The notes under the pieces: generated by a model
What the model was told of the DNA's origin: nothing
What the model saw: only the letters and a program-made list of their open reading frames with translations
Databases searched by the model: none
Position numbers and translations under genes: made by a program
NCBI RefSeq assembly: GCF_056712565.1
Contig: NZ_CM160072.1
Direction: 5' to 3' (one strand)
Length of the DNA: 64,000 nt
In this document: piece after piece, positions 1 to 43,330 of the stretch
How the letters are laid out: every line of letters begins with the position of its first letter
Numbering within the stretch: the first letter of the stretch is position 1

Positions 1-32
1 GAAGGATGAAGTGTAAATAAAAAAGGAAGTGA

Positions 33-422
<390 letters not shown>

Positions 423-432
423 TTCTTTATTT

Positions 433-460
433 CCCTGTTGCCTGCACTCAGGTAACAGGG
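433..460. terminator. stem-loop between convergent cybC and nrdG (ccctgtt...aacaggg)
   Basis: inverted repeat seen directly in the intergenic sequence; likely bidirectional terminator. Confidence 0.5.
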
Positions 461-466
461 AACTTA

Positions 467-931
467 TCATCGCAAATGATGCACCACCTGATTGCTGCTG
501 CCGCGCCAGATCAGGGAAGGGTCTTTTAAATCCTGCACAAATTTGCCGTCGACCAGCACGTTAATCAAATCAACAACCTGCATTTGCGCAGCGTTGAGTT
601 CGTCGAGTTTATAGCCTGTCCACACCCAGATGTCTTTACCCGGACACTCGGCGCGGATGCGTTGTACCAGTTTCAGAATATCCGGCACGTTTTGCGGATG
701 TAGCGGATCGCCGCCGGAGAGGGAAATACCCTGGCGTTTGATACGAGTGTCATTCAGATCGTTAATGATCTGGTCTTCCATTGCTTTGGTAAATGGCTGA
801 CCGGAATTTACCCGCCAGGTGCTTTTGTTATAGCAACCGGGGCATTCATGAACACACCCGGAGACAAACAGGGTGCAGCGAGTGCCGGGGCCGTTGACGA
901 TGTCGACAGGATAGTACTGATGATAGTTCAT
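467..931 (-). CDS. nrdG: anaerobic ribonucleotide reductase activating protein (radical SAM)
   Basis: 154 aa; CxxxCxxC-type cysteine cluster (GCVHECPGCYNKSTW); directly downstream of nrdD. Confidence 0.93.
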   Translation of the reverse strand: MNYHQYYPVDIVNGPGTRCTLFVSGCVHECPGCYNKSTWRVNSGQPFTKAMEDQIINDLNDTRIKRQGISLSGGDPLHPQNVPDILKLVQRIRAECPGKDIWVWTGYKLDELNAAQMQVVDLINVLVDGKFVQDLKDPSLIWRGSSNQVVHHLR

Positions 932-949
932 TATTTCACTTGGCTTATC

Positions 950-1075
<126 letters not shown>

Positions 1076-1088
1076 CACAGAGTGAAGA

Positions 1089-3227
1089 TTAACCTATCTG
1101 CCCATTTCCCAAATGTTTAACGCGGCGCTTAACTTCTTCCTGCTTACCAGCGTTAAACGGACGTGCATCCGGGCTACCTAAATATCCGCACACGCGGCGA
1201 GTCACCGACACACGGGAGGTGTCATGGTTACCACATTTCGGACAAGTGAAGCCTTTGCTGGTGCACTCAAATTCGCCGGTAAAGCCACACTCGTAGCATT
1301 CATCGATCGGTGTGTTGGTGCCGTAATACGGTACATGCTGATAGCTGTAATCCCAGACATCTTCCAGCGCCTTCAGGTTGTGCTGAATGTTTGGATACTC
1401 GCCATAGCAAATGAAGCCACCGTTCGCCAGTGGCGGGTAAGGCGCTTCAAAGTCGATCTTGTCGTACGGGTTCACCTTCTTCTCCACATCGAGGTGGAAA
1501 CTGTTGGTGTAGTAACCTTTATCGGTCACGCCCGGCACCACGCCAAACTCAGCGGTATCGAGACGGCAGAAGCGGTCACACAGGTTCTCACTCGGCGTAC
1601 TGTAGAGGCTGAAACCGTAGCCAGTTTCTTCTTTCCACTGATCCACCGCCTGACGCAGACGCTCAACAATCGCAATACCTTTCGCGCGCAGCTGCTCGTT
1701 GTCGTAAACATGCTCGCCGCCGAACAGCGCGTTAATGGTTTCGTGGATGCCGATGTAACCCAGCGAAATAGACGCACGACCGTTTTTGAAGATTTCAGAA
1801 ACGTCGTCGTCAGCATTCAGACGCACGCCACAAGCGCCTTCCATATAGAGGATCGGGGCTACGCGCGCTTTCACGCCTTCGAGACGAGCGATACGGGTCA
1901 TCAGCGCCTTACGTGCCAACACCAGACGTTCATCCAGCAGCTTCCAGAAGGTGGCTTCATCGCCTTTTGCTTCCAGAGCAATACGCGGCAGGTTCAGGCT
2001 GATCACGCCGAGGTTGTTACGACCATCGTGGATCTGCTCGCCGTTTTCATTTTCCCACACGCCGAGGAAGCTGCGGCAGCCCATCGGGGTTTTAAACGAA
2101 CCGGTGACTTTCACTACCTGATCGTAGTTCAGGATATCCGGATACATGCGCTTGCTTGCGCACTCCAGCGCCAGCTGTTTGATGTCGTAGTTCGGATCGC
2201 CTTTTTTATGGTTCAGGCCATCGCGAATCGCAAACACCAGTTTCGGGAACACCGCCGTTTTACGGTTTTTACCGAGGCCTGCGATACGGTTACGCAGGAT
2301 CGATTCCTGAATCAGGCGCGATTCCCAGCTGGTGCCCAGACCAAAACCAAAGGTTACAAACGGCGTTTGACCGTTGGCGGTATGCAGGGTGTTTACTTCG
2401 TACTCCAGCGACTGGAAGGCATCGTAGCACTCTTTGATGGTACGAGAGTTAGCGTAGCCTTCGGCGTCCGGGATGTTCCACTCTTCTGCGGTCTTGCGAT
2501 GTTTGTTGTAGCTGGCGGTGACAAACGGTGCCAGCACTTCATCGATACGGTTAATGGTGGTGCCGCCATAAATATGGCTGGCGACCTGAGCAATAATCTG
2601 CGCAGTTACCGCGGTTGCCGTAGAGATCGACTTCGGCGGTTCAATCTCGGCGTTCCCCATTTTAAAGCCCTGGGTCAGCATGCCTTTCAGGTCGATCAAC
2701 ATGCAGTTGAACATCGGGAAGAACGGCGAGTAATCGAGATCGTGATAGTGAATATCGCCACGCTCATGTGCCTGCACCACGTCACGCGGCAGCAGGTGCT
2801 GGCGTGCATAGTGTTTAGCCACGATCCCGGCCAGCAGGTCGCGCTGGGTTGGAATCACCTTGCTGTCTTTGTTGGCGTTTTCGTTGAGTAACGAGGAGTT
2901 GGTCTGCTCGACCAGACCACGGATCTCCTGGTTCAGGCGACCGCGTTTTTCACGTTCAATGTCGCGATCGTGACGGTACTCGATGTAGGCACGAGCCAGT
3001 TGTTTGTATGGCCCCGACATCAGCTGGTTTTCAACTGCGGTCTGGATCTCATTGATATCCACTTGGTTGCGGCCCTGCATCTGCTCGCTGACAACCGCAG
3101 CAACAGTGGCGCAATAATCGGCATCATCGACTTCCGCTGCTTTAGCTGCACGCAGAATCGCTTCTTTGATGCGCTCTGATTTAAACGGCACTTTGCAGCC
3201 GTCTCGTTTCATCACATGCGGTGTCAT
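1089..3227 (-). CDS. nrdD: anaerobic ribonucleoside-triphosphate reductase (class III, glycyl radical)
   Basis: 712 aa; C-terminal glycyl-radical motif RVCGYLG and zinc-ribbon cysteines. Confidence 0.95.
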   Translation of the reverse strand: MTPHVMKRDGCKVPFKSERIKEAILRAAKAAEVDDADYCATVAAVVSEQMQGRNQVDINEIQTAVENQLMSGPYKQLARAYIEYRHDRDIEREKRGRLNQEIRGLVEQTNSSLLNENANKDSKVIPTQRDLLAGIVAKHYARQHLLPRDVVQAHERGDIHYHDLDYSPFFPMFNCMLIDLKGMLTQGFKMGNAEIEPPKSISTATAVTAQIIAQVASHIYGGTTINRIDEVLAPFVTASYNKHRKTAEEWNIPDAEGYANSRTIKECYDAFQSLEYEVNTLHTANGQTPFVTFGFGLGTSWESRLIQESILRNRIAGLGKNRKTAVFPKLVFAIRDGLNHKKGDPNYDIKQLALECASKRMYPDILNYDQVVKVTGSFKTPMGCRSFLGVWENENGEQIHDGRNNLGVISLNLPRIALEAKGDEATFWKLLDERLVLARKALMTRIARLEGVKARVAPILYMEGACGVRLNADDDVSEIFKNGRASISLGYIGIHETINALFGGEHVYDNEQLRAKGIAIVERLRQAVDQWKEETGYGFSLYSTPSENLCDRFCRLDTAEFGVVPGVTDKGYYTNSFHLDVEKKVNPYDKIDFEAPYPPLANGGFICYGEYPNIQHNLKALEDVWDYSYQHVPYYGTNTPIDECYECGFTGEFECTSKGFTCPKCGNHDTSRVSVTRRVCGYLGSPDARPFNAGKQEEVKRRVKHLGNGQIG

Positions 3228-3419
3228 GATCGCTCCATATTTTTAAGAACAGGTTATCCACAGAAATTGGGAAAGGCGTTTTCCGGTTTTTTCGTTTCGT
3301 TTTCCGGTGCTTTCCGCAATCGCCATCCGCTTATCCACAACGCCGCACCTTTTTCGTGGGGAGCTGTAGTAGCAATTATAGTCGATTAATACAACATATT
3401 GGGTTGGGACGCATTTTAA

Positions 3420-3480
3420 AGTCTATATATAGTGCTTTGCATCAAGGATGTTTGAACTTTTTTTGATGTAGCTCAAAGTA
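3420..3480 (-). promoter_or_regulatory. nrdDG promoter region with NrdR-box-like palindrome (ctatatatagtg) and FNR-like site (ttgatgtagctcaa)
   Basis: motifs seen in sequence upstream of nrdD; assignment rests on known anaerobic FNR and NrdR regulation of nrdDG. Confidence 0.4.
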
Positions 3481-3620
3481 AAAAGCAGAGCGTACGGATG
3501 ACGGGCGCTACAGCGATATGTAAATTTTTTAATGAATTTTTTGATTATAAAATCAACAAAAACAACATGCTGACAGGCAAAACCCCGGAATGACAGGCAT
3601 TACCGGGGCTTAGCGAAGAT

Positions 3621-5276
3621 TTACTTCTGTAACCACCAGACAGCCTCAAAAGGCCGTAAAGTCATGGCACAGGGTTGTGGTGAGGCTTCTTCGTAGTTAT
3701 GCATCACAAGCTGCCAGTTGCCGAGCATTTTCCCTGGCTGCCAGGGTTGGGTCTCACGGCTAAGGTTGGCAATGACCAGCAAGGTTTGCCCCTTCCACTC
3801 ACGGCGATAGCACCACAATACAGGGCTGTTTGGCAGCAGATCCTGGTAATCGCCCCATGTCAGGACGGCTTCTTGCTTACGCAGTGCGATTAACTTTTGG
3901 TAGGTGTAAAACACCGAGGACTCATCGGCCAGCGCTGCTTCTACGTTGATTTCCTGATAGTTATCGCCCAGGCCAATCCACGGTTCGCCAGCCGTAAACC
4001 CGGCATTATCGCCGTTGGTCCATTGCATGGGGGTGCGACTGTTGTCACGGGATTTACTGGCGAGGATTGCCAATAACTCGTCGGCATCACGCCCATCGTT
4101 GCGCAGCTCGGCAAACATATTGAGGCTCTCCACGTCGCGATAGTCAGTAATGCGCGTGAAATGTGGGTTGGTCATGCCAATCTCTTCGCCCTGGTAGATA
4201 TACGGCGTTCCCTGCATGCCATGCAGCACCATCGCCAGCATTTTTGCCGCAGGCACACGGTATTCACCTTCATCACCAAAGCGAGAAACAATGCGCGGCT
4301 GATCGTGGTTACACCAGAACAAGGCATTCCATGCCACGTTGTGCATTCCTTGTTGCCAGTGGCGGAACAATGTTTTCAACGCCACAAAGTCAGGTTTAGC
4401 CAGCGTCCATTTTTCACCACCGGGATAATCGACCTTCAGGTGATGAAAATTAAAGGTCATCGACAATTCACTGCCTGTCAGTGCCGCGTATCGCTGGCAA
4501 TGCTCAAGGCTGGTGGAGGACATTTCACCTACGGTCATTAACCCGCGTGGCGTAAACACATCGCGGTTCATCTCGTGCAAAAATTCGTGTGCTCGTGGCC
4601 CGTCGGTGTAGAAGCGACGCCCGTCGCCATCCAGGTCTTCAGGGTAACGCGGGTCTTTGGAGATCAGATTCACCACATCCAGGCGCAACCCGTCGACCCC
4701 ACGATTGGCCCAGAACTCACAGACTTTTTTCAGCTCTGCGCGTACCGCTGGATTCTCCCAGTTGAGATCCGCCTGTTCTGGTGCAAAGAGATGCAAATAG
4801 TACTGTTCGCTTTCCGCATGCCAGCGCCACGCACTACCACCGAATTTTGAACGCCAGTTGTTCGGTGGCGTTTCTGGTTCTCCATCGCGCCAGATATAAA
4901 ACTGGCGGTAAGGGCTTTCTTTGTTCAGCGCCTCGCGAAACCAGGCATGTTGGGTAGAGGTATGGTTAAACACCATATCGAGAATGATACGAATCCCACG
5001 CGATTTTGCCTGTGTCACCAGTTCGTCAAAATCGTCCAGCGTGCCATAGGTGGGATCAATCGCCGTATAATTCGCTACGTCGTAACCGTTATCGACCTGG
5101 GGAGAGACATAAAAGGGGGTTAGCCAGATGGCATCAACGCCCAGTTTATGCAGATAGTCCAGACGCTGGATAACGCCACGTAAATCGCCGGTGCCGCTAC
5201 CCGTGGTGTCCTGAAAACTCTTTGGATAAATCTGGTAGATAACGCCGTTTTGCCACCAGTGGGGAAGATGAGTCAT
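3621..5276 (-). CDS. treC: trehalose-6-phosphate hydrolase (GH13)
   Basis: GH13 alpha-glucosidase family sequence; start placed at MTHLPHWW (551 aa) rather than the longer ORF. Confidence 0.92.
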   Translation of the reverse strand: MTHLPHWWQNGVIYQIYPKSFQDTTGSGTGDLRGVIQRLDYLHKLGVDAIWLTPFYVSPQVDNGYDVANYTAIDPTYGTLDDFDELVTQAKSRGIRIILDMVFNHTSTQHAWFREALNKESPYRQFYIWRDGEPETPPNNWRSKFGGSAWRWHAESEQYYLHLFAPEQADLNWENPAVRAELKKVCEFWANRGVDGLRLDVVNLISKDPRYPEDLDGDGRRFYTDGPRAHEFLHEMNRDVFTPRGLMTVGEMSSTSLEHCQRYAALTGSELSMTFNFHHLKVDYPGGEKWTLAKPDFVALKTLFRHWQQGMHNVAWNALFWCNHDQPRIVSRFGDEGEYRVPAAKMLAMVLHGMQGTPYIYQGEEIGMTNPHFTRITDYRDVESLNMFAELRNDGRDADELLAILASKSRDNSRTPMQWTNGDNAGFTAGEPWIGLGDNYQEINVEAALADESSVFYTYQKLIALRKQEAVLTWGDYQDLLPNSPVLWCYRREWKGQTLLVIANLSRETQPWQPGKMLGNWQLVMHNYEEASPQPCAMTLRPFEAVWWLQK

Positions 5277-37616: not shown

Positions 37617-38636
37617 TCAAAAATCGGCTTTCAACACCACGCGGTAACGCGCCTTACCGTCGCGCACATGCTGGATGGCGTCGTTAATTTTCGACATCGG
37701 GAACAGTTCGGTAGTCGGCGCAACCTTGCTGCGGGCGGCAAAGCGCATCAGCTTACGCAACTCATAAGGTGTACCGGTAGCAGAGCCAGAGACACTGCGA
37801 TCGCCCGCAATCAGCGTAAAGGCCGGAACCGGCAACGGCGTGAGAACCGCACCGACGGTGTGGAAATTACCGCCATACGTCAGCGCCTCAAAATAAGGCT
37901 GCCAGTCGAGGCTGACGTTCACAGTATTGATAATGAGATCAAACTGCCCCGCCAGAGTTTTCAGTGCCTGCGGATCGCGGCTATTCACCACTTTATCGGC
38001 ACCCATCGCCAGTACTTCCTGCTCTTTCGCCGGATTTGAACTAAAGGCTGTCACCTCGCATCCCATTGCGTGCAGAAGTTTTATAGCGATATGCCCCAGC
38101 CCGCCAATACCAATTACCCCAACGCGGCTGGTAGCAGTGATATGGTGCATCAACAGTGGTTTAAAGACCGTGATACCGCCGCACAACAGCGGCCCGGCGG
38201 ACTCGATATCAATATTTTCTGGCAGTGGAATCACCCATTGCCAGTCCGCACGCAACTTCTCGGCAAAGCCACCGCGATTCATAATCGTCGGCACCGCACC
38301 TTGCTCGCAGTTGATCTGATTACCGCTAATACAGGCGTCGCAGTGACCACAGCTACGCGCCGTCCAGCCAATCCCGACACGCTGACCGACCTGCAAACCT
38401 TTATCCTGCGCGGCGCTCCCGAGTGCCACCACGCGCCCAATCACCTCATGCCCGGCAACCAGCGGATATTGTGAAAATCCCCATTCGTTATCGATCATCG
38501 ACAGATCGGAATGGCAGATCCCGCAGTAATCCACCTGCACTTCAACATCTTGTGGCCTCAGCTCACCGGGATCGTACTCATAAACTTCCAGTTCGCCGCC
38601 CGCTTCTTTTGCGGCATAGCTTTTTATCATCGACAT
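37617..38636 (-). CDS. ahr: NADPH-dependent aldehyde reductase (zinc MDR)
   Basis: 339 aa from [21 protein letters not shown] and GHEVIG zinc-ADH motifs. Confidence 0.9.
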
Positions 38637-38831: not shown

Positions 38832-38916
38832 GCCGAAGTGGCGAAATCGGTAGACGCAGTTGATTCAAAATCAACCGTAGAAATACGTGCCGGTTCGAGT
38901 CCGGCCTTCGGCACCA
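38832..38916 (+). tRNA. leuX: tRNA-Leu (anticodon CAA)
   Basis: 85-nt sequence gccgaagtggcgaaatcggtagacgcagttgattCAAaatcaacc...ggcacca with long variable arm and encoded CCA. Confidence 0.95.
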
Positions 38917-39176
38917 AAAGTATGTAAATAGACCTCAACTGAGGTCTTTTTTTATGCCTGAAATCCAGTGTTTATCTATCTTTCCCGCTATATTAACTCT
39001 CTCAAGGTCAACCGATATCAACGTACATCTACCAACATATGTTGGTACAGATGATGGTATTTCCGGTTCGATAATGCTTGTACCAACAGGGAGGGAATAC
39101 GATGGCATTAACAGATATCAAAGTCAGAGCAGCCAAGCCAACGGATAAGCAATATTAGCTGACTGATGGTGGCGGT

Positions 39177-40367
39177 ATGCATCTGCTTGTCCATCCAAAT
39201 GGTTCTAAGTACTGGCGTTTGCAGTACCGTTATGAGGGAAAGCAAAAAATGCTGGCACTTGGGGTTTATCCTGAAATCACACTAGCGGATGCCAGAGTAC
39301 GTCGTGACGAGACGCGTAAGCTGCTTGCGAATGGCGTCGATCCGGGAGACAAAAAGAAAAATGATAAGGTTGAACAGAGTAAAGCACGAACCTTTAAAGA
39401 AGTCGCGATTGAGTGGCATGGCACCAATAAAAAGTGGTCTGAAGATCACGCCCATCGTGTGCTAAAAAGTCTTGAAGATAATCTTTTTGCAGCGCTTGGT
39501 GAACGTAATATCGCTGAGTTAAAAACTCGAGATTTATTAGCACCTATTAAGGCCGTAGAAATGTCTGGACGTCTTGAAGTGGCCGCTCGTCTTCAGCAGC
39601 GCACTACAGCCATCATGCGCTATGCAGTGCAAAGTGGGTTAATTGATTATAACCCGGCACAAGAGATGGCTGGGGCGGTTGCTTCCTGTAATCGACAACA
39701 TCGTCCCGCGCTTGAATTAAAGCGCATCCCTGAGTTGCTTACAAAAATAGATAGCTATACTGGTAGGCCGCTAACCCGATGGGCGATAGAACTCACTTTG
39801 CTGATCTTTATTCGGTCCAGTGAGCTGCGTTTTGCTCGTTGGTCAGAGATCGATTTCGAAGCGTCTATATGGACTATCCCACCGGAGCGGGAGCCTATTC
39901 CTGGAGTGAAACATTCCCATAGAGGCTCAAAAATGCGTACAACGCATCTAGTGCCTCTTTCAACGCAAGCTCTTGCAATTTTAAAGCAGATAAAACAGTT
40001 TTATGGGGCCCATGACTTGATATTTATTGGTGATCACGATTCGCACAAACCCATGAGTGAGAATACGGTAAATAGTGCGTTACGGGTCATGGGGTATGAT
40101 ACAAAAGTAGAGGTTTGTGGTCATGGCTTTCGAACAATGGCCTGTAGTTCATTGGTCGAATCAGGTCTGTGGTCTCGTGATGCTGTTGAACGCCAGATGA
40201 GCCACATGGCGCGAAATTCAGTGAGGGCCGCGTATATCCATAAAGCAGAGCATCTGGAAGAACGGCGATTGATGCTACAGTGGTGGGCCGATTTTCTGGA
40301 TGTAAACAGAGAAAGGTTTATCAGTCCATTTGAATATGCAAAGATTAATAATCCATTAAAACAGTAA
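39177..40367 (+). CDS. intB: P4-type tyrosine integrase; the ancestral N-terminus upstream (ATG 39102) is cut off by an in-frame TAG at 39156
   Basis: 396-aa ORF with C-terminal tyrosine-recombinase catalytic region (HGFRTMA...RAAYIH); upstream in-frame MALTDIKVRAAKPTDKQY then TAG. Confidence 0.85.
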   Translation: MHLLVHPNGSKYWRLQYRYEGKQKMLALGVYPEITLADARVRRDETRKLLANGVDPGDKKKNDKVEQSKARTFKEVAIEWHGTNKKWSEDHAHRVLKSLEDNLFAALGERNIAELKTRDLLAPIKAVEMSGRLEVAARLQQRTTAIMRYAVQSGLIDYNPAQEMAGAVASCNRQHRPALELKRIPELLTKIDSYTGRPLTRWAIELTLLIFIRSSELRFARWSEIDFEASIWTIPPEREPIPGVKHSHRGSKMRTTHLVPLSTQALAILKQIKQFYGAHDLIFIGDHDSHKPMSENTVNSALRVMGYDTKVEVCGHGFRTMACSSLVESGLWSRDAVERQMSHMARNSVRAAYIHKAEHLEERRLMLQWWADFLDVNRERFISPFEYAKINNPLKQ

Positions 40368-40371
40368 TCAT

Positions 40372-40390
40372 CCCGGGCAAATGCCCGGGA
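40372..40390 (+). terminator. hairpin after intB (cccgggca-aat-gcccggg)
   Basis: perfect inverted repeat immediately after the intB stop. Confidence 0.55.
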
Positions 40391-40539
40391 ATTATTCTAG
40401 GATTATTTTCTTTGTTAAAAAAGACAAACGGTATTAACTGATGTATTTACTATTTACCGCTCCCTGCAGGGGGGATTATCAGAATCCGCGGTTATTCATT
40501 ATTTATATACATTCAATAAAAAAGTAACTGGATTTGCCC

Positions 40540-41445
40540 CTATATTTCCAGACACCTGTTATCACTTAACCCATTACTGGCTTGCTGCCGTAGATATTCC
40601 CGTGGCGAGCGATAACCCAGTGCACTATGCGGATGCCATTCGTTATAATGCTCGAACGCCTCTGCAAGGTTCTTTGCTGCCGTTAACCCGTCTGGTTTGG
40701 GCATGACACTGATGTAGTCACGCTTTATCGTTTTCACGAAGCTCTCTGCTATGCCGTTACTCTCCGGACTCCGCACCGCCGTGCTCTTCGGTTCAAGCCC
40801 CAACATCCGGGCAAACTGCCGTGTTTCATTAGCCCGGTAGCATGAACCATTATCCGTCAGCCACTCTACTGGAGACGCCGGAAGCTCGTTGCCGAAGCGG
40901 CGTTCCACCGCTCCCAGCATGACGTCCTGTACTGTTTCACTGTTGAAGCCGCCCGTAGTGACCGCCCAGTGCAGTGCCTCACGGTCACAGCAGTCCAGCG
41001 CGAACGTGACTCGCAGTTTTTCTCCGTTATCACAGCGGAACTCGAACCCGTCAGAGCACCATCGCTGATTACTTTCTTTCACAGCCACTCTGCCTGTATG
41101 TGCCCGTTTCGATGGCGGTACAGCAGGTTTTCGCTCAAGCAACAGCGCATTCTGGCGCATGATCCGGTAAACACGTTTGGCATTGATCGCAGGCATACCA
41201 TCAAGTTCTGCCTGTCTGCGAAGCAGCGCCCATACCCGACGATAACCATACGTGGGCAGCTCTCCGATAACATGGTGTATACGGAGAAGCACATCCGTAT
41301 CATCAGTGTGACGACTGCGGCGGCCATCCATCCAGTCATCGGTTCGTCTGAGAATGACGTGCAACTGCGCACGCGACACCCGGAGACAACGGCTGACTAA
41401 GCTTACTCCCCATCCCCGGGCAATAAGGGCGCGTGCGCTATCCAC
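40540..41445 (-). CDS. insD: IS2 transposase OrfB
   Basis: 301 aa DDE transposase within IS2. Confidence 0.9.
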
Positions 41446-41768
41446 TTTTTTGCCCGTCCATATTCAACGGCTTCTTTGAGGAGTTCATTTTCCATCGTTT
41501 TCTTGCCGAGCAGGCGCTGGAGTTCTTTAATCTGCTTCATGGCGGCAGCAAGTTCAGAGGCAGGAACAACCTGTTCTCCGGCGGCGACAGCAGTAAGACT
41601 TCCTTCCTGGTATTGCTTACGCCAGAGAAATAACTGGCTGGCTGCTACACCATGTTGCCGGGCAACGAGGGAGACCGTCATCCCTGGTTCAAAGCTCTGC
41701 TGAACAATTGCGATCTTTTCCTGTGTGGTACGCCGTCTGCGTTTCTCCGGTCCTAAGACATCAATCAT
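41403..41768 (-). CDS. insC: IS2 OrfA (HTH)
   Basis: starts [26 protein letters not shown]; overlaps insD in the -1 frame. Confidence 0.85.
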
Positions 41769-42099
41769 CTGCTCTCCAATGACTAGTCTAAAAACTAGTA
41801 TTAAGACTATCACTTAAATAAGTGATATTGGTTGTCTGGAGATTCAGGGGGCCAGTCTAGTAACCTCATAAAAAATCCTGTACTCACAGGGTGATGCGGG
41901 ATAACTGACGTAAGGAGTGCTGCAGGGATTTGATGGTCCCTTGTGCTGATATGAATACGGATATTTTATACAGAATACTTTTCAGTACAAGCGACTGTAT
42001 TACAGTCTGCCATATATGATTACCTGTGATCAGGAAGAATAAGTGGCTGAGGTTTCAAACTGTCTGCCGGTATATTCCTCTCTCCCTTAAAAACCATAA

Positions 42100-43330
42100 C
42101 AGGTTAGTTATCTTCGTCTGTCAGCGGATTGAATGGCGGTATATTTTCAGTACAAATACCGGTCATCCACTGAAAAATACCTGCGAAATGACGGGCACTG
42201 ATTTTTCTACTGACGGGCTGATGAGACGTTATGTCACTGGCGGTAATAATCAGTGGCACACTGTAGCCTCCCTGCACATGACCATAATGATGAACAGGAT
42301 TGGCACTGTCGCTGACCGACAGCCCAAGGCCAGAAAAGTAAAGCATGGCGAAATGACGTGAGTACCGGCGAAGGATACCATCAAGCTGGCCAAGAAAGTT
42401 ATCCAGTTTACTGATGCTGGCGAGGTAACAGGCAATTTTTCGGGGATACTGCTCCAGGTAATTATTCGGCTAGGAGTTAAGGCTGTCACACGGATTTGGA
42501 TGAGAACCCATCATGTGCAGGAAAATTATCTTCGGAGAGGATGTATCCGCCAGCGCACGTTCTGTTTCCTGTAACAACAGTTTGTCATCTGTTTTACGGG
42601 AAGCGAAGCTGCCTTTCTTGAGGAAAGTGGCATGCTCCGCATCAGAAGCAATAACAGAGATGCGTGTGTCATGCCCCCCAGTTTTCCTTGATTGGATATC
42701 CACCATGTGCTGTATCCTGCTTTTGCTGCCAGCGCCACCACATTGTTGCCGGAATCAGGGTTCTGCTCATAGTCATAAATCAGTGTCCGGCTCAGGGAAG
42801 ACACTGTACTGGAGGCTGTCGAGGTATAATCGTCAATAAATAAACCGGGTGCCGTATTCAGCCACGGTGTGGTTGGTACGGGATAGTCATACACTGACAT
42901 ATAATCCCTGCGCACACTCTCACCAGTGACAATAACAATCGTATCATATAACGGTGCTCCCGGCTGGATTTTCCAGTTGTCAGCCCCGTGCTACTCAGTT
43001 GTTCATAACGCTGCATTTCACGTAATGTGTCAGTTGTCCCCACAACTGTTCCTTTAACCATCCGCAATGGCCAACGGTTTACAGAGCATAATACGAATAG
43101 CCGTAGAGCCAGCCAGTTACGGTGGTCGCGATGGTGTGTCCGCCAGAAAATCACCACGAATACCAGAATCGCGGCACTGACCAGAAAATGATAAACAGGA
43201 AACACGGGGCGGTTCACTTTGCTTTCTCCTGTAGTGTTTTCTGTAGGTTCTGAACCGGTTCTAGCGGGGTTGTGAGGCTGATGGCAATCGCCGGGCTCTT
43301 CCTGCATGTTACACTGGTACTGCAAGAGGG
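42100..43330 (-). pseudogene. yjgX: EptA/sulfatase-family phosphoethanolamine transferase remnant, broken into several frames
   Basis: adjacent minus-strand ORF fragments with sulfatase-type motifs (HMMGSHPNPCDSL, VPLIITASD, DYMSVYDYPVP) and an upstream membrane-domain fragment. Confidence 0.6.

Follow-up and report, generated by a model that had tools for sequence, protein, structure and literature searches.

Probable inactivation of intB, the P4-family integrase gene of the leuX island of Escherichia coli, by an amber codon at Lys19

Introduction

Can an integrase gene whose reading frame meets an in-frame stop codon only 19 codons after its start still produce a working recombinase? The question is raised by intB, which lies beside the tRNA gene leuX in a window of 64,000 nucleotides (the whole stretch of DNA that was analysed; NCBI RefSeq assembly GCF_056712565.1, contig NZ_CM160072.1). 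Positions 38832-40400 of this window match E. coli strain 104 at 100% identity and K-12-type genomes at 99.9%. A first-pass annotation had proposed that the integrase either starts internally, with loss of part of its arm-binding domain, or is a pseudogene. Both options find support, and the evidence from AAG alleles and from the K-12 record favours the pseudogene.

The interruption is already known to K-12 curators, and there is nothing new in the lesion itself. The curated record of MG1655 gives intB (b4271) a pseudogene flag over 4496750-4497940, equivalent to window 39177-40367, and its 'cryptic prophage PR-Y' feature (4496675-4497940) has the ancestral ATG and the stop as its exact limits. 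As a discovery, the locus therefore carries small weight. It does, however, illustrate clearly how a genomic island becomes fixed when both its integrase and its right-end site are lost, and how a dead allele has nonetheless spread among backgrounds by homologous recombination. The literature searched yielded no experimental work on the intB integrase; the single match to 'intB' was the integrase of the asnT island.

We consider it very probable that intB is a P4-family tyrosine integrase gene killed by an AAG-to-TAG change at Lys19, within a fixed leuX island. The following sections set out the evidence for this reading together with the alternatives.

Reading frame and start sites

The features of the 5′ end of intB are as follows.

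39090-39094, + strand: Shine-Dalgarno sequence GGAGG of the ancestral start, a perfect match 7 nt 5′ of the ATG at 39102
39102-39155, + strand: ancestral intB start and codons 1-18 (MALTDIKVRAAKPTDKQY), from the sequence, 120/120 homologues and the start of the MG1655 PR-Y feature
39156-39158, + strand: amber TAG in place of AAG (Lys19), with A-to-T at 39156; AAG in intact alleles
39159-39161, + strand: CTG at which NCBI PGAP begins a 402-aa 'intact' integrase (WP_223362169.1)
39177-40367, + strand: remaining open intB frame from Met25, 396 aa, from the list of open reading frames, Pfam and the MG1655 annotation

Direct reading and translation of 39102-40367 confirm the earlier description of a frame that opens at ATG 39102, stops at TAG 39156-39158 and continues into the 396-aa open reading frame. 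Specifically, the ATG (39102-39104) begins 18 sense codons, the TAG follows, and the frame proceeds as LTDGGGMHLLVHPNG... up to a TAA at 40365-40367. With the TAG at codon 19, an uninterrupted frame from the conserved N-terminal Met is absent in the window. The first 18 codons are real coding sequence and no chance frame, because their inclusion extends the Pfam match to the arm-binding domain and because all 120 closest homologues begin with the corresponding peptide.

The three candidate start sites differ in their predicted pairing with the 3′ end of 16S rRNA. The duplex energy is -11.6 kcal/mol at ATG 39102, -5.4 kcal/mol at ATG 39177, which lies only 18 nt past the TAG and has a weak GGUG 5 nt upstream, and -3.3 kcal/mol at CTG 39159, representing negligible Shine-Dalgarno pairing. 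Initiation would thus be expected at the strong ancestral site, with termination after a peptide of 18 residues, and at most a minor product would arise by restart at Met25 from the weak GGUG site. A sigma-70 scan upstream of intB returned no promoter match.

Automatic annotation presents the gene differently. The PGAP coding sequence opens at the CTG directly behind the TAG, is named 'tyrosine-type recombinase/integrase' (WP_223362169.1 or WP_223293345.1) and carries no pseudogene flag. This start was seen in all nine of the TAG-carrying RefSeq genomes whose annotation was inspected, and it is an annotation device. If it holds across the approximately 900 genomes with the TAG, surveys that judge island mobility by integrase intactness would be misled, and automated tallies of intact integrases would come out too high.

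Ancestral state and further substitutions

Intact alleles of 1,266 nt (421 aa) occur in E. coli CH4790, AMSCJX02, PRO_A-1412 and FORC_081, at 96.7-99.4% nucleotide identity to the gene in the window. Codon 19 is AAG in all four, as it is in the allele of MIN10, which is 79% identical, and in a truncated ST131 remnant. Judged from these alleles, the lesion is a single A-to-T nonsense change at 39156 that turned Lys19 into an amber codon. The intact proteins encoded at the same location beside leuX (WP_001218934.1, WP_001218930.1 and WP_047088530.1; again 96.7-99.4% nucleotide identity over 1,266 nt) also differ from the window in having Ala71 and Glu370.

More distant relatives agree. We took the 120 best matches to the intact form in a large protein collection; they show 84-100% identity and represent taxa throughout the Enterobacterales. 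All but two are 415-422 aa long (118/120; the outliers have 391 and 436 aa), and every one begins with MAL(T/S)D or MPLTD. Lys19 is present in 120/120, and none carries a stop codon. The first-pass annotation had reasoned that intact homologues starting naturally at the internal Met would argue against an interruption; among the 120 closest, no such start is found. Alignment with intact P4-family integrases, which it had also proposed, places the intact form against P4 Int from residue 1. Alignment with the solved N-terminal domain PDB 3JU0 also begins at residue 1, and Lys occupies the corresponding position there. A sense codon in the orthologues and a stop limited to one lineage is the pattern of a pseudogene formed by nonsense mutation.

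The satellite phage P4 integrase (NP_042035) is 59.5% identical to the full-length intB form over residues 1-408. It shares with intB a three-domain architecture, a 20-nt att core at the 3′ end of leuX and repeats between the core and the integrase gene. P4 int is intact and active, whereas intB in the window is interrupted at codon 19 and carries E370A.

Two amino acid substitutions accompany the stop codon in the window.

39312-39314, + strand: ACG (Thr71), from alignment; Ala in 120/120 homologues, in the intact alleles and in the K-12 TAG allele
40209-40211, + strand: GCG (Ala370), from alignment; Glu in 120/120 homologues, between the invariant His368 and Tyr378

Ala370 is present in every TAG allele sampled, and the intact alleles have Glu370. 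Thr71 occurs in the window and in several other TAG alleles. K-12 MG1655 has the same gene in the same place (b4271, the leuX-adjacent KpLE2/'PR-Y' remnant) with the TAG at codon 19, and differs from the window at 2 of 1,266 nt: the window has Thr71 where K-12 has Ala71, and C rather than T at gene position 1092.

Comparisons between intact alleles give dN/dS values of 0.08-0.29, which indicates purifying selection on the intact gene. Apart from a single nonsense mutation, the TAG branch holds one or two changes each of the non-synonymous and the synonymous class, numbers too small for a selection test. Its amino acid changes all fall on invariant columns, which would fit relaxed constraint.

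Frequency and spread of the TAG allele

The first-pass annotation had suggested looking for the TAG in other strains. We counted exact 61-mers centred on codon 19 in 5,426 complete E. coli genomes, of which 922 match the TAG version and 869 the AAG version. The 869 AAG matches establish the TAG as a polymorphism within the species. The TAG matches bear on whether the stop codon might be an assembly or sequencing error in the window, a prospect whose only attraction is that the change involves one base. Since the identical 61-mer recurs in 922 independently sequenced genomes, all of them complete, with MG1655, B derivatives and clinical isolates among them, the TAG is real, and the chance of an error is negligible.

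Carriers of the TAG include laboratory derivatives of K-12 and B, and HB101. Natural isolates are also numerous in an evenly spaced sample of the ranking; they come from humans, chicken, pig, river and monkey, have genomes of 4.8-5.3 Mb and include one labelled ST1193. Ten TAG alleles from diverse strains are only 0-2 of 1,266 nt apart, and none of the ten has an additional stop or frameshift. For Ala370, the K-12-type 61-mer has 903 exact matches and the window type, a rare synonymous variant, has 14. The resulting 917 genomes, against 922 with the TAG, link the two changes, either of which may have come first.

TAG carriers fall into two groups separated by 22-23 differing sites, almost all of them at window 37743-38037, in ahr. 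Across these roughly 300 nt, window-type and K-12/B-type carriers are approximately 7% divergent, so that the distal half of ahr in the window departs from that of K-12, whereas from 38038 through leuX and intB the groups are essentially identical. This contrast indicates that the TAG haplotype has moved by homologous recombination, one breakpoint of which falls in ahr. On the sequence pattern, the haplotype is of single origin and was then carried between backgrounds on a recombined chromosomal segment, ahr-leuX-intB, and not through integrase activity.

Sampled ST131-type genomes (2019_APHA, locus 772-1373) show a different, deletion-type inactivation. Their intB has AAG at codon 19, is cut off after approximately 460 nt and abuts a remnant of a phosphoethanolamine transferase pseudogene.

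The leuX attachment site and the fixed island

Between leuX and intB lie the following features.

38832-38916, + strand: leuX, tRNA-Leu(CAA), with wild-type anticodon (ARAGORN; MG1655 leuX b4270)
38897-38916, + strand: 20-nt att core GAGTCCGGCCTTCGGCACCA, left junction of the intB island, identical to the annotated P4 attP core
38930-38947, + strand: terminator-like hairpin and T-run behind leuX (consensus scan; inverted repeat)
39030-39088, + strand: three copies of TACCAACA, at 39030-39037, inverted at 39040-39047, and at 39081-39088 (repeat search)

The core comprises the last 20 nt of leuX, and the ATG of intB follows 186 nt past the tRNA gene. The repeat block consists of a perfect 18-nt palindrome, TACCAACATATGTTGGTA, and one further copy just 5′ of the Shine-Dalgarno sequence. 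It is almost unchanged in the 79%-identical allele, where it is better conserved than the coding region. P4 has arm repeats of the type TGGGGGCA, in contrast to the TACCAACA of intB. As the position of the latter matches that of the P4 arm repeats, they are plausible candidates for arm-type integrase sites in the P′ arm; they might alternatively be autoregulatory sites.

The attachment site itself remains in use. In FORC_081 (AAG) and in elppa5 (TAG), a P4-like satellite separates leuX from intB, and the 20-nt core forms its end. The elppa5 satellite (locus 1-4020) encodes an Icd-like protein and a primase-helicase, and that of FORC_081 (locus 400-520) has P4-type arm repeats TGGGGGCA just 5′ of the core. 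Because these satellites end in the core directly 5′ of the intB leader, they fix the left junction of the island. Further, the finding of such satellites beside either allele, TAG or AAG, shows that the leuX site is still a live attachment site beside a dead integrase.

The opposite end of the island offers no matching partner. A search of the window for the core, allowing up to 3 mismatches, gave no second copy; the window covers 25 kb of the island, whose far end lies beyond it. In MG1655, the best match within approximately 45 kb downstream has 4 mismatches and lies inside fecA. With no second core copy, even a repaired integrase would be without an obvious right-end substrate. An island that has no recognisable right-end att repeat would be expected to stay fixed in the chromosome. 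The window very probably holds a dead integrase gene of no unusual kind, in a leuX genomic island that has decayed and become immobile.

Amber suppression and read-through

A further possibility is that full-length integrase is made conditionally, either by read-through of the UAG or in amber-suppressor backgrounds such as supE, supP and others. Termination at UAG is comparatively leaky when C follows, and amber suppressors are present in many laboratory strains. The base after the intB TAG is indeed C, and the ancestral ribosome-binding site is intact. In addition, the first-pass annotation had correctly pointed out that the adjacent leuX is the supP locus: supP is a leuX mutant with the anticodon changed from CAA to CUA, and it inserts Leu at UAG (PMC7969014).

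Several observations make conditional synthesis very unlikely. ARAGORN confirms that the leuX anticodon here is wild-type CAA, as had been reported. Programmed read-through or recoding is recognised by a stop codon conserved across diverged homologues; the TAG is instead confined to one near-clonal haplotype, and all homologues have Lys, the reverse of what a conserved recoding signal would show. Even full-length protein, if made, would bear E370A and lack an attR partner site.

The juxtaposition of supP and the intB TAG had been called a coincidence, a view that our analysis supports, as no functional tie between the two was seen. A functional supP link was considered and rejected, the anticodon being wild-type and the TAG a single-lineage polymorphism. 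The sole real connection is that leuX is the target of P4-family integrases.

Properties of a Met25 product

If intB is dead, as we believe, the 396-codon frame that remains open behind the TAG still requires consideration. The intact or reconstructed 421-aa form matches three Pfam domains above the gathering score: Arm-DNA-bind_3 (residues 3-87), Phage_int_M and Phage_integrase. The 396-aa frame spans the remainder of the arm-binding domain together with the central and catalytic domains, and also matches all three profiles. Its arm match, though, begins at profile position 24 of 83, scoring 71 bits (positions 24-82) against 100 bits for the intact form (positions 1-82), whereas scores for the central and catalytic domains are no lower in the Met25 form than in the intact one.

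An AlphaFold model built from a 27-sequence alignment was used for the N-terminal domain only. Its quality there is moderate, with block pLDDT values of 58-88, and the model is poor past about residue 190, with pLDDT of 35-56 across most of 310-421. The predicted elements are as follows.

Residues 5-9: helix
Residues 18-21: strand beta-1
Residues 26-30: strand beta-2
Residues 36-44: strand beta-3
Residues 47-56: strand beta-4
Residues 61-76: helix

Lys19 falls within beta-1 of this model. On the predicted fold, a Met25 restart product would be without the short first helix and strand beta-1 of the arm-binding domain. Lambda Int without its N-terminal arm-binding domain keeps core binding and cleavage chemistry, and the arm-dependent intasome is not assembled. 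By analogy with this literature, and bearing in mind that the loss in intB is only partial (24 residues), a similar phenotype might be expected of the Met25 product. Reasoning from arm domains of the lambda type, it should fail to build the arm-dependent complex for integration and excision. The same product would also carry E370A and, in the window, A71T at invariant positions.

R238, K277, H341, R344, H368 and Y378, which we take from motif knowledge to be the catalytic set, form invariant columns in an alignment that includes P4 Int, and all six are kept in the window. A search of the catalytic-domain sequence against solved structures gave no match.

Against a dead gene, then, stand these six putative catalytic residues and a 396-codon frame that is open in 10 of 10 sampled TAG alleles. 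The weak site 5′ of ATG 39177 may also allow some truncated protein to be made. From these points one could propose a functional truncated integrase, produced by termination-reinitiation at ATG 39177 or CTG 39159, that still binds the leuX core and either carries out recombination or alters it, for instance through interference with P4-type satellites sharing the leuX site. The proximity of the restart codon to the stop and its weak GGUG site would permit it, as would central and catalytic domains that score like the intact form, and P4-like elements do integrate at the core right beside intB. Nonetheless we regard it as unlikely. The product would be missing arm-domain profile positions 1-23, including beta-1, and would bear substitutions at positions invariant in 120/120 homologues (E370A and, here, A71T), none of which uses the internal start. 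The open frame in all sampled TAG alleles is accounted for by the youth of the haplotype (0-2 SNPs). The commonness of the allele (922 genomes) also speaks for a function at first sight; hitch-hiking on a recombined segment, together with the many laboratory derivatives in the database, accounts for it.

A more specific proposal is that the TAG allele is common because its Met25 product has been domesticated, occupying the leuX core as a decoy or modulator of the P4-type satellites beside intB. We give this very little credence. In a weaker variant of the idea, the integrase would be active only in amber-suppressing backgrounds.

Selection on the Met25 frame, as judged from its being open, was rejected as a candidate explanation, since TAG alleles that are 0-2 nt apart have had no time to decay. 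The open frame after the TAG is uninformative either way, the alleles being too young. Returning to the dead integrase gene as the preferred reading, the direct observations comprise the mutation, its ancestral state, the haplotype structure and frequencies, the domain loss and the missing attR; beside these, we infer that intB is probably without recombination activity.

Sequences downstream of intB

An insertion sequence follows the gene in the window.

40530-41860 (boundaries within a few nt), - strand: IS2 copy, 162 nt past the intB stop, from open reading frames and the annotation of strain 104

It was compared with an IS-free strain and with K-12. The K-12 copy, IS2K, is at another site, 240 nt past the intB stop, and in the opposite orientation. 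The IS is absent from the site downstream of intB in elppa5 and CH4790. There have thus been two independent IS2 insertions within approximately 80 nt, in two sub-lineages of the TAG haplotype.

Behind intB and IS2 follows a phosphoethanolamine transferase pseudogene (yjgX in K-12; approximately 42000-43300, - strand), which is frameshifted and has an internal stop, an additional sign of decay at the intB end of the island. The downstream pseudogene is shared between the locus in the window and CH4790, which carries an intact intB allele.
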